Source of the DNA: a virus
Length of the DNA: 64,000 nt
IMG/VR virus record: IMGVR_UViG_3300027906_000002
Span: 1-64,000 of that record
Direction: 5' to 3' (one strand)
Shown here: in pieces, positions 53,778 through 63,119 of the stretch
Numbering within the stretch: the stretch's first letter is position 1
Layout: every line of letters begins with the position of its first letter
The notes under the pieces: model-generated
Told to the model about the DNA's origin: nothing
Seen by the model: only the letters and a program-made list of their open reading frames with translations
Database searches by the model: none
Made by a program: the position numbers and the translations under genes

Positions 53778-53975
53778 ATGAATATTGATTTGCCTGAATG
53801 TATATTATTAAATGATAGTGAGAAGCAACTACTAAAGGATGCTTTCTTATCATACATGAAGGAACTAGAGATAAAGACAAAGAAAGAGAAAATGTTAACT
53901 GCTGAAGCATATCAGGAGGTTAGATATCAACTTGAGGATATGATACAGAAATTACATTTAGGGTATGGCAGTTAA
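53778..53975 (+). CDS. Hypothetical protein
   Basis: ORF track. Confidence 0.6.
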   Translation: MNIDLPECILLNDSEKQLLKDAFLSYMKELEIKTKKEKMLTAEAYQEVRYQLEDMIQKLHLGYGS

Positions 53976-55391: not shown

Positions 55392-56581
55392 ATACAGATA
55401 TGACTGGATTACATGAAGAATTTGGTGTAGATATACCAACAGCACCAGAGATTGATCCTAACCAATGTTTCAATGAAGAGTTATTAAAGTCTTTTAAAGA
55501 TACAATAGATCAACAACCTCATTTACATGTTAATACTATACTGGGTAGTTATGCTACAGTTGTACCAGATAGTAACAATCAAATTTATCCTCAATTAATA
55601 TGGATTGATGAGATACATGATTTAGAGTCAATTAGGAATACTATAACAGGAGAAGTGAGACCAAGAGGATGGCAAATAAGAGATGGAGAAGATGTTAACG
55701 AAGATTGTGTTAATGATTATCATCAAGATATAGTTAATAAGGAATGGGTTCCTACACACATGTGTGGTTGTGTATTTGAATTGGAAGATGGGTGGTATAG
55801 TGTATCAAGTAGAGGTGTAAAACGTAAGTATGGTGTTGCTAATTTACATCATAGATTAAAAGCAGCAGCAGAAGCAGGTGAAGATTATATTATTGCATGG
55901 GTAATAAAATTTAAAGATCTTAGATTATTAGCAGAGTGGGCATGTGCTGAAGCAAATAGGAATAAGTATACTTCTAATCCTAGAAAAGATAATGATATTG
56001 TTAGAGCAATTCAAGAGCAATTAACATGGGAGTCAGAACTTAAGATTGCATTAGATAATGCTGAAGAAGATGGAGAAGAGAAAACAAAAATAATAGTTAA
56101 CAAACTTAAATTATTTCATCTTCATGGAAATACTATCAATGGTTTAGTTAGAAAGTTAGAAAGTGTCGGTGTATTTACAGGAGATAGGAGAAGAAGAAGT
56201 GCAGAAGATATTGATAAATGGTTTGAAGATAATTTACCTAGTTGGAAGAAAACAGGTCAAAATGAATATTTAAATGACCAAGGTGTAACAGTTAAAGTTG
56301 TACAAAATATGGGTAACAATCATTTTGCAACTGCTGGTTATCTTGCAGATCAGATACTTGCTGATATCCCACATATAATAATTACTTCTGATAGTTCAGG
56401 TAAAGAAAAACTTCCAACTGATGTATTACAATACAGAAAAGGACATTTAAGTGATGCTTATAAACATATTGATAAGATGGGTGAAGTAAGAGATCTACTT
56501 AGATCAGGTAAAGCACGATTAGCAACACAATATAATCTTCCTGGATTAAATAATGAAGATACATTAATCTACATTCCATAA
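55388..56581 (+). CDS. Hypothetical protein with a weak ParB-like motif
   Basis: NLHHRLKAA resembles the ParB/Srx G.HR motif. Confidence 0.55.
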   Translation: MNTDMTGLHEEFGVDIPTAPEIDPNQCFNEELLKSFKDTIDQQPHLHVNTILGSYATVVPDSNNQIYPQLIWIDEIHDLESIRNTITGEVRPRGWQIRDGEDVNEDCVNDYHQDIVNKEWVPTHMCGCVFELEDGWYSVSSRGVKRKYGVANLHHRLKAAAEAGEDYIIAWVIKFKDLRLLAEWACAEANRNKYTSNPRKDNDIVRAIQEQLTWESELKIALDNAEEDGEEKTKIIVNKLKLFHLHGNTINGLVRKLESVGVFTGDRRRRSAEDIDKWFEDNLPSWKKTGQNEYLNDQGVTVKVVQNMGNNHFATAGYLADQILADIPHIIITSDSSGKEKLPTDVLQYRKGHLSDAYKHIDKMGEVRDLLRSGKARLATQYNLPGLNNEDTLIYIP

Positions 56582-56646
56582 TGTGACACCTAACATAGTG
56601 TCACAGTAAACTACCATTTCATTCTATACTATAGTATATTAACAAT

Positions 56647-56847
56647 ATGAGAAAATTCTTTTCTCCCGATCAACAAATCAAGTTGATTAAAAATGCTTTG
56701 AAAAAAGCAGAACAAGGTTCCGTTCTTTATAATGATGATGAACTCATCAAATTAAAGACATCACTTAATAAATTGCGTGATGAGAAGGAACAAACTAGGA
56801 AACTACTCAACCGAGGATTTGGTTATGACAAAGAAACTAACAGTTGA
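56647..56847 (+). CDS. Hypothetical protein
   Basis: ORF track. Confidence 0.65.
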   Translation: MRKFFSPDQQIKLIKNALKKAEQGSVLYNDDELIKLKTSLNKLRDEKEQTRKLLNRGFGYDKETNS

Positions 56848-56949
56848 TTACGATCAAAAGTATGACAATTGTCAGGAAAATGAGGATGATTGGGTATCAT
56901 CAGTTATAGGAACTGAAGATGATGCAATCTATGACATTCTGGATCAATT

Positions 56950-57318
56950 ATGAATACTTGGGAAGTCACATTACAACGTGAAAATGGTATCAACAAGACA
57001 GTAATTGTTGATGATTGTATGTATGAAAGTGAAGCAGAATTGCTTGCTGAATCACAATATGGACTTCCAGTTTTAAAAGTATTATATAAAGGACAATCAG
57101 ATGTTTGGGGTATGAGTAATAAAGATGGTAATGATTACATTTGGTATGATTTACCTAGACGGAGAGCAAGAGGGGGAAAAAATGTAGATATAGATGGTCT
57201 ATTTGGAGTGATGATGATTATACCTGCACTTGCCACACTTGTTATTATTATTGAGTATTGGTTACCAATACTTATTATTACATGTGGTGTAGGTGCATTT
57301 ATGTCATTCAAGAAATAG
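56950..57318 (+). CDS. Hypothetical membrane protein
   Basis: Two C-terminal TM segments. Confidence 0.6.
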   Translation: MNTWEVTLQRENGINKTVIVDDCMYESEAELLAESQYGLPVLKVLYKGQSDVWGMSNKDGNDYIWYDLPRRRARGGKNVDIDGLFGVMMIIPALATLVIIIEYWLPILIITCGVGAFMSFKK

Positions 57319-57459
57319 GCATTTATATTTGTTAACTTAAGGTGTTCAATTCATCACAAATGTTATAAATAATGATAGTCACCGAAAGGTACAGTTAGGA
57401 GTAACAAGATGCACTGAAACCTCATTTATTATGAGTTTAATGTATACAAGGAGGTCTAA

Positions 57460-57624
57460 TTGTCCAACAGTTTAATTTCATTCAATCAAATGGCATTTTG
57501 GAAACATGGAACAGATGATACTTCTCAAGATGAGAAGATAGATGAGTACTTTGAATGTCTAATTGATTGCGATACAAACGACCAAAATAGTTGTAGGAGG
57601 GTATGTTCAGAGTTATTAGTTTAA
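57460..57624 (+). CDS. 54-aa four-Cys peptide (TTG start)
   Basis: SD GGAGGT; ..EYFECLIDCD..SCRRVC.. Confidence 0.6.
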   Translation: MSNSLISFNQMAFWKHGTDDTSQDEKIDEYFECLIDCDTNDQNSCRRVCSELLV

Positions 57625-57648
57625 GGGACAATTAACAACAATTAAGTT

Positions 57649-57676
57649 AAAAGAGGGTTGCAAAACCCTCTTTTTT
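57649..57676. terminator. Intrinsic, possibly bidirectional, terminator
   Basis: AAAAGAGGGTT/AACCCTCTTTT followed by Ts. Confidence 0.8.
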
Positions 57677-57692
57677 AATGTATAATAGGTAC

Positions 57693-58661
57693 ATGAAAGA
57701 TACTATTCTATTTGGAGATTGTCGTAAGACGTTATCAGCGTTCTTACCAAATAGTGCTCGTATGTGTGTAACATCACCACCATATTACGGACTAAGAGAT
57801 TATGGTGGAGAAGATAATCAAATAGGATTAGAACAATCACCAGAAGAATATGTTAACGAGATGGTGAAAGTATTCAGAGAAGTTAGAAATATATTGACTG
57901 ATGATGGAACACTATGGTTAAACATAGGTGATAGTTATTACAACTATCGTCCTGGTAAGGGTGCTAATTACCCTAAGCAAAGTGTTAGTGAGACTAGACA
58001 AGATCTACCCACTAATAGTAACAAACGTGCTAACAAATTAGAGGGACTAAAAGAGAAGGATCTAATTGGTATTCCTTGGATGTTAGCATTTGCATTAAGA
58101 GCAGATGGATGGTACTTAAGGCAAGATATTATATGGCATAAACCTAATCCAATGCCTGAAAGTGTGCGTGATAGATGTACTAAAGCACATGAATATATCT
58201 TCTTGTTGAGTAAGAATAAGCATTACTATTATGATAATGAGAGTATAAAAGAACCTGCTAAAGATTGGGGTACTCGTGATAGATCTAAGGGGAAATATCA
58301 CAATGAAGGTACAGGTTTATCACCTCATACTGGTCTCACTAAATCATATCCAACAAAGAACAAACGTAGTGTATGGAGTATAACTAAGAGACCATATAAG
58401 GGTGCTCATTTTGCTACTTTCCCACCTGAATTAATCACACCATGTATACTTGCAGGTTCAGCACTAAATGATACTATCCTCGACCCATTTATGGGTAGTG
58501 GTACAACAGCAGCAGTGGCAAAATCATTAGGTAGGTATTACATAGGGTGTGAATTACATGAGGATTATGGTCATTTAATAGAGGAGAGAGTACGAGAATA
58601 CCATGTGACACCTGACAAAGAGGCACACAACCCACTGACAACACTGCTGAATGATGTATAA
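57693..58661 (+). CDS. Beta-class DNA amino-methyltransferase (probably m4C)
   Basis: VTSPPY, IIWHKPNPMPESV.DR.TKAHE, HFATFP, LDPFMGSGTT. Confidence 0.93.
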   Translation: MKDTILFGDCRKTLSAFLPNSARMCVTSPPYYGLRDYGGEDNQIGLEQSPEEYVNEMVKVFREVRNILTDDGTLWLNIGDSYYNYRPGKGANYPKQSVSETRQDLPTNSNKRANKLEGLKEKDLIGIPWMLAFALRADGWYLRQDIIWHKPNPMPESVRDRCTKAHEYIFLLSKNKHYYYDNESIKEPAKDWGTRDRSKGKYHNEGTGLSPHTGLTKSYPTKNKRSVWSITKRPYKGAHFATFPPELITPCILAGSALNDTILDPFMGSGTTAAVAKSLGRYYIGCELHEDYGHLIEERVREYHVTPDKEAHNPLTTLLNDV

Positions 58662-58668
58662 TAGATAT

Positions 58669-58825
58669 GTTGAGAGATCACTAGGTTTCCAACTACTAAG
58701 ACATCAGGCATCCGTAAGACTTTCAAGGTTGCGTTCAATCGCATTTAAGTCGAACTTAAGCAAACATAAGTCCTGTGAATCTTAGACATGATGTTAGAGT
58801 AATTTACTTACCCTAGTCTCTCAAC
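58669..58825 (+). ncRNA. Candidate rod-shaped non-coding RNA
   Basis: Own -10 (TATAAT 58657); ends pair (GTTGAGAG/CTCTCAAC, ACTAGG/CCTAGT); nested stems; 3' U-run. Confidence 0.6.
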
Positions 58826-58846
58826 TTTTTTCTTTGATCTAACTAC

Positions 58847-59137
58847 ATGCCAACTGCAACACCTCGTAAGACTTCAACTGCAACACCACGCAAGAGAAGA
58901 ACACGCAAGGCAACTGCAAAGAAAGTAACACCAACTCCACTAAATACAACAGTCGAAACTAAACTCAATGGAGATCCTATTGTGACTGAAACTGTTAACA
59001 ATGAAGTGAAAGTTGATGTGAAAAGAAGAAACCTAACCGAGTTAAATGGTCTTGAGTTAGTAATACTTCCTCTAGTATATCTTGAGGGATTTGTTAAACT
59101 AATCCTAAAAGAGACTGGAGTATTAGAAACAGTGTGA
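58847..59137 (+). CDS. Hypothetical protein with basic N-terminal repeats
   Basis: TATPRKTSTATPRKRRTRKATAKK. Confidence 0.65.
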   Translation: MPTATPRKTSTATPRKRRTRKATAKKVTPTPLNTTVETKLNGDPIVTETVNNEVKVDVKRRNLTELNGLELVILPLVYLEGFVKLILKETGVLETV

Positions 59138-59158
59138 CAGTTAAACAACCTACACACT

Positions 59159-59183
59159 GAGACCCCATAAGGGGTCTTTTTTT
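59159..59183 (+). terminator. Intrinsic terminator embedded in a promoter cassette
   Basis: GAGACCCC-ataa-GGGGTCTT followed by Ts, then TATAAT 59187. Confidence 0.75.
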
Positions 59184-59216
59184 GTGTATAATGATTATGT
59201 CCTTTGAAATGATTCT

Positions 59217-60467
59217 TTGAAAGACGCATTGAGACCACACCAGCAGAGAGCATATGATAAGATGACCACTGAGAATTCAGGTCAGATTATTATACCTACT
59301 GGTGGTGGCAAAACATTCATTATGATAGCAGATTGTCATAGATTAGTAACAACAACTCCTCGTAGTCCTCAGACTATTGTTGTAGTTGCACCACGCATAT
59401 TGCTTGCTAATCAGTTATCTAACGAGTTTGAATCTGCACTTCCTGATGTTAAGATAGCACATGTACATTCTGGTGAAACTCATCATTTTAGTACAACAGA
59501 TCACAGGTTTTTAACACATTGGGGTTGCTCTAATCCTCAGTATGATAAGTTAATCTTTACCACCTATCATTCACTCCACAGAGTATTAGATAGCATGGTA
59601 AATATCAACAGAATATACTTTGATGAGGCACACAATGGCACTAGCAAAGTATTCTTTAAGCAGATAAAGAGAATCGCTGAGTTACAAATACCACGCTTCT
59701 TCTTTACTGCTACACCACGCATTTCACGCTCTAAGAATAGTATTAGTGCGGAACGTGGTATGAACAATGCGGAGATATATGGTGAAAAGTTAGAAGAAAC
59801 ATCTGCTAAGGAGTTAATAGATAGTGGCACTATCTTATACCCTAAAGTTATACCATTTGAGACCGATAGAGAGCGTACTAAACAGAACGCACATGAGGTT
59901 GATAGTGATAACTTAAAGGACATACTTAACTCCTTAACTGATAACAATCCAAAGGTACTTGTGAGTGCTCCAACAACAAGAATCATGTGGAATATGCTAT
60001 CACAAACTGATATTCAGTCATGGTTATTAGAGCATGATTATAACATCATGCACATCACATCTAAACATGGTGCTGTTATCAATGGTAAGAAAGTAGGAAG
60101 GGAAAAGTTCTTCCAAACCCTTACAGATTGGGGCAAAGATGATAACAAAAGGTTTGTAATCTTCCACTATAGTATACTATCAGAAGGCATAAATGTTCCT
60201 GGTTTGACTCATTCAATCATGCTTAGAAACTTACCTACCATTGAAATGGCACAGACAATAGGTAGAGTTATCAGGATACATGAGAAGGATAGAGTATCAA
60301 TGAAGGATGGTAAGATACCTGCTGGTCAGTATAACTTATACCATAAAAGTCATGGTCAAATTGTTGTACCTATGACTGGTAAGTATGGTCAAAGAATAGC
60401 AGATAGATTGAAATCTATTGTTTCATATATCTTTATAGAGGGTATTCCACCAAGAGCATACGTCTAG
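59217..60467 (+). CDS. SF2 DExH helicase-like protein
   Basis: LRPHQ, PTGGGKT, DEAH, TATP, LSEGINVP, QTIGRVIR. Confidence 0.88.
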   Translation: MKDALRPHQQRAYDKMTTENSGQIIIPTGGGKTFIMIADCHRLVTTTPRSPQTIVVVAPRILLANQLSNEFESALPDVKIAHVHSGETHHFSTTDHRFLTHWGCSNPQYDKLIFTTYHSLHRVLDSMVNINRIYFDEAHNGTSKVFFKQIKRIAELQIPRFFFTATPRISRSKNSISAERGMNNAEIYGEKLEETSAKELIDSGTILYPKVIPFETDRERTKQNAHEVDSDNLKDILNSLTDNNPKVLVSAPTTRIMWNMLSQTDIQSWLLEHDYNIMHITSKHGAVINGKKVGREKFFQTLTDWGKDDNKRFVIFHYSILSEGINVPGLTHSIMLRNLPTIEMAQTIGRVIRIHEKDRVSMKDGKIPAGQYNLYHKSHGQIVVPMTGKYGQRIADRLKSIVSYIFIEGIPPRAYV

Positions 60468-60552
60468 TGTGCCAGTCTGTAAACTGCACACTATTCTCCC
60501 CACTGCCTCTAAAATGACCTATAATAACAGAGTACCAAACAAAGACACCTTT

Positions 60553-60882
60553 ATGACAGTCTCCAACCTATCTCAAACAGCACGAGTTGAAATGTGGGTT
60601 TTGGATTTGGTAGATGCACTTGAAGCAAACTACACAAGTCGTTACCCTGATTCACCTAATCCTGTAAAGTTTGAAACTAAGGTAGGTAAGAAGTACATCA
60701 AAATTATTCAAGTTGATGGAGGTGTTCATGCTTTCATTGATAAGAATACAGGTGAAGTTTATAAACCTGCATCTTGGAAATCACCAGCAAAGCACGTTAG
60801 ATATGATTTAAGGATCATTAATCAACGTCAAGAGTGTTATTCAAGAGCAGATTGGGCAGGTGGTTATCTTTACATAAGATAA
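60553..60882 (+). CDS. Hypothetical phage protein
   Basis: KVGKKYIKI..VHAFIDKNTGEVYKPASWKSPAK; ATG downstream of TATAAT 60520. Confidence 0.7.
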   Translation: MTVSNLSQTARVEMWVLDLVDALEANYTSRYPDSPNPVKFETKVGKKYIKIIQVDGGVHAFIDKNTGEVYKPASWKSPAKHVRYDLRIINQRQECYSRADWAGGYLYIR

Positions 60883-61057
60883 TCAATCATTAGTCCTAAG
60901 TATGACTCTAAACTGCTTATTGTAAATTTACTTTCTCACTTTATCATGTCATTTAATCCTGAAGTTGCACTATTCAATCTACTTGAAGATGCACAAACAG
61001 CAGCAGAATTACTAGCAGTAATTGATGACTACATTGCTAACAGTTAGTAACACTTAG

Positions 61058-61082: not shown

Positions 61083-61598
61083 TCACCCATTTGTTAAATA
61101 ACTATGAACACATCAATCCGTTATTGGTTCCCTGATACCAGACAGTGCAGATATTTGTACTTTAAAACATACCAACAGGCACTAGATTGTATTGAATTGT
61201 TTAAACAAATCGAGGTAAGATCGGAGGTAATTGTATGACTGAACCATACACAATTGAAACGAGTTGTTATACAATAGACTTTACAAATAGGAAGGCATAT
61301 GAAGATGTATTGAAGGAATGTGAGAGACTAAGTGTTAATATGGATTACTACTTCTTAGAGTTTGACACAACAGACACCGAACCAGAAGCATATATGTGAC
61401 AGTTAACTAAGTTGCACACTAAACCCCCATTTTGGGGGTTTTATCGTTTATAATAAGAATGTTCAAACGAATTCAACCCATGAACACAAATCTTTCAAAA
61501 GAAGTGTATGAGCAGTTGTTGAACCCAACTCCAACAATTCGTTATTACTTCTTATCAAACTTAACAACCAAATCTACAACTAAGGGAGGTAAAAAGTA

Positions 61599-62992: not shown

Positions 62993-63119
62993 ACCCTGTG
63001 GCAGTCTAGGAAGTGGCACAAGGTCGCTTGATTTATGCCCCAATCTGTGCTATATTAAGTACATAATCAAGGAAGACCAAATTTCTTGATCTCCAGAACA
63101 AACATTCAATTTCAAAATT

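Follow-up and report, generated by a model that had tools for sequence, protein, structure and literature searches.

The DNA considered here, called the window below, comprises the initial 64,000 nucleotides (64 kb) of a virus record of 179,402 bp (IMG/VR record IMGVR_UViG_3300027906_000002). Its source is a T4-like cyanophage with P-SSM7 as its nearest relative. The window DNA around the locus discussed below is ~80% identical to that Prochlorococcus phage (Kyanoviridae). A large share of the ocean's Prochlorococcus and Synechococcus dies through infection by T4-like cyanophages, about whose non-coding RNAs, to our knowledge, almost nothing is known. The locus runs from an N6/N4 DNA methylase gene (57678-58661) through the gene for a 96-aa basic protein (58847-59137, plus strand; T4-GC 686 in P-SSM7) to the gene for a UvsW-like superfamily-2 helicase (59217-60467). 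Between the methylase and basic-protein genes lies the element that is the subject of this report, 157 nt on the plus strand (58669-58825) with the closing pair GTTGAGAG/CTCTCAAC. A first reading of the letters, the original prediction, had described a self-contained rod-like non-coding RNA with the architecture of 6S RNA. One half of that description holds, namely a non-coding structured RNA that starts at the predicted +1 of a strong early promoter. The likeness to 6S RNA does not. The element is instead a promoter-proximal, non-coding structured RNA domain made of nested separable units and, as far as comparison of related loci can tell, it belongs to an undescribed modular family of cyanophage early RNAs.

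The promoter is a sigma-70-type sequence on the plus strand (58635-58662) in which CTGACA (58635-58640) and TATAAT (58657-58662) are separated by 16 nt. It matches the consensus at 11 of 12 positions, its -10 overlaps the methylase stop codon and it is the top sigma-70-like match in a 5-kb scan (56000-61000). Close relatives keep it, and in three of them (L060-L062) it is identical. Just upstream on the same strand is a palindromic box, TGTGACA..N..GCACACA (58604-58629), of a kind common to the early promoters of this region and also found ahead of related elements in other phages. Where, then, does the transcript begin? Two nearby early promoters (boxes at 53964 and 56582) are leaderless, with an ATG exactly 7 nt past the -10. 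This makes G58669 the likely +1 of the element's transcript. G58669 is also the first base of the closing helix P1, so P1 would begin at the very start of the RNA, and the TATAAT that had been boxed about 7 nt before the start is indeed where it was said to be.

Palindromic TGTGNCA..TGNCACA boxes some 30 nt upstream of the -10 recur at the early promoters between 53964 and 63030 of the window (53964, 56582, 58604, 59133, 60468, 61395, 62699, and 62997). Several other early transcripts open with small +1 hairpins of their own, such as GTTCA..TGAAC after the box at 61395 and ATCAAGGAA..TTTCTTGAT after the one at 62997.

The element has four nested layers: the P1 clamp, module B, the C-shell and the C-core. 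On the 5' side the plus strand reads P1 (GTTGAGAG, 58669-58676; 7 nt past the -10, pair probabilities 0.95-1.0), a 3-nt bulge AUC between the P1 and P2 arms (58677-58679), P2 (ACTAGG, 58680-58685; pair probabilities 0.37-0.96), P3 (TCCAAC, 58688-58693) and P4 (CTAAGA, 58696-58701), followed by P5 (CAGG) together with the 5' half of the C-shell, GGCATCCG (58705-58714). The 48-nt C-core (58715-58762) occupies the centre, with predicted hairpins TGCG/CGCA (58730-58743) and TTAAG/CTTAA (58745-58759). The return side begins with the 3' half of the C-shell, AACATAAGTCC, and the P5 arm CCTG (58763-58775). It continues with the 3' half of module B (58780-58798), which consists of the P4 arm TCTTAG (58780-58785), a conserved bulge ACATGAT and the P3 arm GTTAGA (58793-58798). 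A 13-nt conserved bulge of module B, GTAATTTACTTAC (58799-58811; family pattern GUAAU..A.U..), then leads into the 3' arms of P2 (CCTAGT) and P1 (CTCTCAAC, 58818-58825), which together span 58812-58825.

Folded alone with ViennaRNA, 58657-58836 has a minimum free energy (MFE) of -40.5 kcal/mol (z = -2.51), which only 3 of 200 shuffles equal, and the 157-nt core has one of -39.0 kcal/mol. Stable folding was thus rightly anticipated, and the MFE structure is nearly identical to the pairings originally read by eye. However, this agreement does not extend to the family. The mid-section of the single-sequence structure, consisting of the 8 x 10 nt internal loop TTTCCAAC/ATTTACTTAC and the stems TACT/AGTA, ACATCA/TGATGT, TAAGA/TCTTA, and TTCA/TGAA, is not conserved in other loci. 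Covariation supports P3 and P4 in its place.

Does the RNA end where the fold ends? A T-run, TTTTTTCTTT (58826-58835, plus strand), directly follows the 3' arm of P1, just as predicted, and might be a weak terminator tail. It is unique to the window copy, and relatives have no T-run there. A terminator scan called none at 58818-58836. Still, P1 plus six U could work as a weak terminator in the window copy, and a discrete RNA of 157-165 nt is possible there. The family norm is read-through into the basic-protein gene which, provided that read-through occurs, shares one transcription unit with the element. Set against a stand-alone sRNA gene, the element has a promoter of its own, but a canonical conserved intrinsic terminator was not found.

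As the original prediction had said, no conserved open reading frame is present. A 44-aa frame (58651-58785) is not conservable because relatives swap out the entire interior. Two further coding candidates were rejected: an antisense 57-aa frame spans the promoter and is destroyed in relatives, and a micro-ORF in the C-core has variable positions without 3-nt periodicity. A tRNA/tmRNA scan of the window gave nothing. The element is single-copy in this genome, and GTTGAG after a -10 occurs once in 179 kb. This copy number rests on pattern and BLAST searches, since a genome search with the covariance model described below missed the window's own insert-bearing copy. P-SSM7 likewise has one copy of module B, at the corresponding site.

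The first clue to the modular nature of the element came from blastn against phage records, which matched only parts of it, at differing genomic places. For the outer part the match was on a contig from a marine single-cell virus, at a distance of 7 kb from the methylase gene there. The inner 48 nt matched Synechococcus phage metaG-MbCM1, 3' of the helicase gene. The homologous site of P-SSM7 holds different content from the window. Exact-pattern scans of IMG/VR then placed an outer 26-mer in 13 contigs and an inner 19-mer in 22 true contigs (23 matches, one of which, L023, is a chance match), and degenerate patterns brought in further P-SSM7-like copies. Loci were also collected through the helicase protein. 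This route is independent of the RNA and gives an unbiased view of the homologous site. In all, about 60 related loci (numbered with the prefix L) were compared.

In metaG-MbCM1 (L003; JN371769.1, 41462-41964) the RNA locus is covered by two short coding sequences labelled 'helicase', of which one is on the minus strand. The genuine helicase ORF of that phage stops before both, so they look like mis-annotations laid over non-coding RNA.

Module B carries the strongest evidence for a conserved RNA structure. Its layout is P2, UU, P3, UA, P4, with the conserved bulges ACAUGAY and GUAAU..A.U. In a 23-sequence alignment, 98.4% of the cells of P3 and P4 are paired and 9 of 11 pairs show compensatory double changes; an earlier version with 20 sequences supported the same helices. 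P3 is paired at 98.6% (n = 23 sequences), with compensatory change in four of six pairs, and P4 at 98.2%, with such change in all five. None of 500 shuffles equalled the observed values, and sliding the partner strand by 1-3 columns lowered pairing to 25-50%. The predicted covariation among homologues is therefore present, in P3 and P4. The variants speak for themselves: UCUAAC/GUUAGA, CCCGAC/GUUGGG, CCUGAC/GUUGGG, CCCAAC/GUUGGG, CCUAAC/GUUAGG, and UCUUUC/GAAAGA for P3, and CUCUG/CAGAG, GACUG/CAGUC, GUCUG/CAGAC, CCUUG/CAAGG, and CCGA/UCGG for P4, next to CUAAGA/UCUUAG (CUAAG/CUUAG) in the window. P1 varies too, as GAGAG/CUCUC, GAGGG/CCCUC and a G.U form GAGGG/CUUUC. The clamp here is of the type GUUGAGAG/CUCUCAAC, and P-SSM7 and MbCM1 have an alternative, GGAAAACAAAC/GUUUUGUUUUCC. 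G.U pairs are tolerated on the plus strand alone, where the other strand would have C.A mismatches, which means that selection acts on the transcript.

The window copy has the full signature of module B: the P3/P4 helices, the UA spacer and both the ACAUGAY and GUAAU..A.U bulges. A covariance model of the module (R1) scores it at 41.4 bits (E 7e-7). The same model turned up more copies bearing new compensatory variants. Because the helices (through compensatory changes) and the bulge sequences persist while the rest of B diverges along with the phage backbone, module B is under purifying selection for RNA structure.

The inner layers behave differently. The C-shell, GGCAUCCG...AACAUAAGUCC, recurs within other closing helices (UGGG/CCCA, GUGUAAGG/CCUUACAC, and GUUGAGG/CCUCAAC) and holds other contents in L002 and L015. 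The C-core, UAAGACUUUCAAGGUUGCGUUCANUCGCAUUUAAGUCGAACUUAAGCA, is identical at 44 to 48 of its 48 positions in 16 other loci. It is seen in 15 distinct contexts, directly within at least four different closing helices or shells, and its position relative to the methylase and helicase genes varies between phages. By blastn the C-core is 92-100% identical to the window, and shell plus core (69 nt) 97-100%, whereas the methylase and helicase DNA of the same loci is 65-80% identical. (Global alignment, used first for the flanks, was uninformative, as lenient gaps inflated identity.) Such near-identity would imply either very strong constraint at nearly every base or recent spread.

The site at which these layers sit is hypervariable. 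The closest relatives (helicase identity 84-91%) share the basic-protein gene and have an early promoter identical or closely related to that of the window, with quite different contents in between. In L060 only ACATC separates GTTGAG from CTCAAC, leaving a bare 17-nt hairpin. L061 and L148 have an unrelated module plus module D, and L062 has modules F and D. Module B is present with module H in L064 and L150 and with another insert in L149. In L063 module B holds F and D, uses the alternative clamp type and is followed by module G, and L158 has a B-like variant of roughly 330 nt. The alternative module sets span 93-330 nt. More distant relatives (L065, L067, L160, and L162) have no element, and the gene directly follows the promoter. 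Module B itself can be empty or filled: its P4 loop is empty in P-SSM7, L016 and L049-51, and elsewhere holds D, F, H or the C-shell. Without an insert, as in L016 and P-SSM7, the module measures 76 nt. With interiors swapped on a collinear backbone, the interior has been exchanged, enlarged or lost.

Some of the companion modules have recognizable structures of their own. Module D (L005, L006, L013, L015, L061, and L062, inside cassettes) reads UUAAUUAG-ACUNN-GUAAA-NNAGU-UAGSAUA. Its 5-bp stem covaries (CUUG/CAAG, CUCA/UGGG, CUGA/UCAG, and CUCG/CGAG) and its GUAAA loop is invariant. Module G (GGGCAAGGATCTATGG...CAGAGAAATTACG) is found at L063:2360-2450 and in L004, L009, L012, and L027, with a hairpin that covaries (UCUCUG/CAGAGA vs UUUCAA/UUGAGA). 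It also lies in unannotated intergenic DNA of cultured P-SSM2 (AY939844.2, 55980-56093), P-SSM5, and S-SSM4. A pseudoknot-like module occurs at L019:8530-8590 and L020:4620-4690, and upstream of module B in L016 and L008. Both of its stems covary (CAACCC/GGGUUG vs CUAGUC/GACUAG for stem 1; GGUAGUUUC/GAAACUAC vs GGUGGUUUC/GAAACCAC for stem 2), its linkers CCUUU and GGAGGCGAUAG are conserved and it matches nothing in Rfam.

Is any of this already known under another name? At the gathering threshold Rfam gives no match in the window or in 13 related loci. At E<=10 over 58400-59300 it gives only chance matches (sn668, and Atu_C8 on the downstream terminator). No description of a comparable cyanophage RNA was found in the literature, and the main text of a survey of viral structured RNAs (PMC10690425) mentions no such element. 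Among the closest precedents are the manA (RF01745), wcaG (RF01761), and PhotoRC-II (RF01717) motifs, orphan structured RNAs of T4-like cyanophages and marine metagenomes that lie in apparent 5' UTRs (Weinberg et al., 2010; PMC2864571). These are likewise conserved structured cyanophage RNAs. However, their Rfam models match nothing in the window or the 13 related loci, and the present element differs in sitting at the +1 of an early promoter, in consisting of nested interchangeable units and in not being tied to a metabolic gene class.

Modules B and C appear to be phage-specific. Scans of 185,579 prokaryote species genomes for the C-core and B motifs yielded only chance-level 18- to 22-mer matches. 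There were 56 for the C-core and 19 for B, in unrelated taxa and never with the extended motif; by our own estimate about 70 matches to the 18-mer are expected by chance. A host origin or host mimicry was rejected on these grounds. An apparent likeness of the C-core, noted by eye, to a 5' region of 16S rRNA (9-nt identity and 7-nt complementarity) was also dropped, as by our own arithmetic about 0.4 such matches are expected.

The reading that best accommodates these observations, and which we hold with moderate confidence, is that the element forms a structured domain at the 5' end of an immediate-early transcript and is one allele of a hypervariable RNA cassette site with interchangeable modules. 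Most of the uncertainty concerns the function of the modules. The strong host-sigma70 promoter would make the RNA right after infection. The P1 clamp, beginning at the transcription start, would close the element, with module B (P2-P4), the C-shell and the 48-nt C-core nested inside. By analogy with known 5' stabilizers, a clamp flush at both ends would shield the 5' end and give a stable domain. This domain would either remain on the early mRNA or be trimmed to a discrete small RNA, and in the window copy the T-run may contribute some termination. The loops and bulges conserved at the nucleotide level would bind host or phage factors specifically, as decoys or as docking sites. For B, with its conserved loops and bulges, and for the near-invariant C-core, the best explanation would be specific surfaces that bind proteins or RNAs. 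Between co-infecting phages, the conserved arms would permit modules to be traded by homologous recombination, in the manner of the PeSL cassettes of T4-type phages described below. Some other trans-acting early RNA, as the original prediction had also suggested, is possible.

What would the clamp do without its contents? 5'-terminal stem-loops such as those of the E. coli ompA and T4 gene 32 leaders block 5'-end-dependent attack by RNases. In these stabilizers the helix is at, or within ~2 nt of, the 5' end, and the bare hairpin of L060 looks exactly like that, suggesting that stabilization is the basal function. The known stabilizers are simple hairpins, however, whereas the loop of this one carries up to 300 nt of conserved modules.

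Several observations weigh against reading the element as a domain of this kind. The cassette is dispensable, given the relatives with a bare hairpin or with nothing. In L019 and L020, B and C follow two different promoters, so a single site per genome is no general rule. In the window copy the family fold (P3/P4) is less stable than the MFE fold (-32.8 vs -39.0 kcal/mol) and P3 contains a C.A mismatch (58690/58796). This copy may therefore have a different fold or may have decayed slightly. As for the C-core, RNAalifold finds only UAAG/CUUA and UGCG/CGCA (-4.7 kcal/mol), with no compensatory changes. It is too invariant across its 15 contexts for covariation to be a test, which leaves a fold that is only predicted, and weak, and its near-identity could come from recent horizontal spread instead of constraint.

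A bolder form of the cassette-site reading is possible and is put forward tentatively. What if, in cyanomyoviruses, the first nucleotides of an immediate-early transcript form a combinatorial 'RNA accessory island'? In this scenario the clamp hairpin would hold exchanged, nested modules (B, C-shell, C-core, D, F, G, H, and the pseudoknot), each of them binding its own host or phage factor with high affinity, as decoy or docking site, and their composition would tune host takeover or counter-defence much as islands of anti-defence proteins do. If true, this would be a new organizational principle for viral non-coding RNA. At this locus the RNA modules behave as accessory genes do: under purifying selection, to judge by the compensatory changes in B and by a C-core better conserved than the adjacent enzyme genes, phage-specific, and exchanged and nested at a fixed, highly expressed position. 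Should host factors be what they bind, they would represent a novel kind of takeover or counter-defence tool and, together, a natural library of compact RNA ligands. The proper unit of analysis is the module, not the 157-nt rod, for which the 6S analogy is wrong.

A serious alternative, if a rather unlikely one, is that the cassettes are neutral or selfish. Here only the +1 hairpin would matter, as a 5' stabilizer, and the inner modules would be passengers spread by recombination into hairpin loops at PeSL-like hot spots. Such traffic is established for T4-type phages, in which PeSLs (promoter-early stem-loops, with conserved promoter and stem-loop sequences) flank variable inserts in early hyperplastic regions, with apparent swapping by homologous recombination (Arbiol et al., 2010; PMC2839356; Comeau et al., 2014; PMC4122927). 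The present site likewise has a conserved promoter and P1 arms around a swapped interior in collinear genomes (L060-L064 and L148-L150). Dispensability, high variability among near-identical backbones, the bare-hairpin allele of L060, precise module boundaries in many contexts and the near-identity of the C-core, which fits recent transfer, are all consistent with passengers. However, a genome has many copies of a PeSL, and what these shuffle are protein-coding ORFs, whereas the clamp of the element is single-copy and its inserts are nested non-coding modules. One copy per genome is also unlike repeats of the MITE type, and neither a transposase nor a homing endonuclease gene is among the neighbouring genes. 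Module B keeps its helices (through compensatory changes) and bulge sequences as it diverges with the backbone, a sign of purifying selection at the RNA level.

Could the element simply serve the gene that follows it? On this doubtful view, the fallback of the original prediction, it would be a dedicated cis leader of the basic-protein gene, acting as riboswitch or attenuator, or as a nut-like site recognized by the protein's arginine-rich N-terminus. The appeal is easy to see. The element lies between promoter and gene here and in many relatives, the protein (which matched no Pfam or PHROG family) opens with a Lys/Arg-rich segment in an N-terminus rich in Lys, Arg, and Thr, and a strong terminator after the gene (59159-59178) would be a target for antitermination. 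In lambda nutL-N and HK022 put, structured RNA likewise lies just 3' of an early promoter, and the gene that comes first after it in lambda codes for an RNA-binding protein rich in arginine. However, the element has no boxA/boxB or put similarity, and its modules are dispensable and not bound to one gene. B and C lie directly upstream of at least 12 different genes, including the methylase gene (L049-51), the helicase gene (L037) and about ten unrelated small genes. Conversely, relatives retain the basic-protein gene while having other modules, only a bare hairpin or no structured leader at this site. In addition, the 21 nt from P1 to the ATG are not sequestered in the predicted fold, and the helicase gene beyond the terminator has a promoter of its own.

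An action at the DNA level, as a replication origin with an R-loop primer site or as a protein-binding palindrome, is very unlikely. T4 origins do use promoter-proximal transcripts, the C-core contains an imperfect 17-bp palindrome and a UvsW-like helicase gene is adjacent. Against this, G.U pairs are tolerated on the transcribed strand alone, close relatives lack the element or have something else in its place, and the cumulative GC skew is monotonic, with no origin signal.

Finally, a 6S-like rod whose open-promoter-like bubble ties up host sigma-70 RNA polymerase during early infection, the decoy favoured by the original prediction, is barely credible: despite the likeness in length (~157 nt), paired 5' and 3' ends, promoter-driven start, lack of coding capacity and the internal loop of the single-sequence MFE fold, the three defining features that can be tested fail, since neither 6S RNA (RF00013 and related models) nor any other Rfam family matches around the element even at E<=10, six of the eight bases on the 5' side of the bubble pair in the covarying P3, leaving a 2 x 13 nt asymmetric loop in which only the 13-nt bulge is left on one side, and neither size nor content is conserved at a site that ranges from 17 to ~330 nt, or to nothing, in relatives.

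Two minor features lie downstream. The strong intrinsic terminator 3' of the basic-protein gene (59159-59178; GAGACCCC-ATAA-GGGGTCTT plus a T-run) abuts TGTATAAT of the next early promoter, and this PeSL-like composite (59159-59193) recurs in relatives. Across orthologues of the basic protein (L065, L067, L146, and L155 among relatives) the C-terminal half is of two unrelated types, hydrophobic LELVILPLVYLEGF in the window and a longer KVRWQIHSYE one elsewhere.

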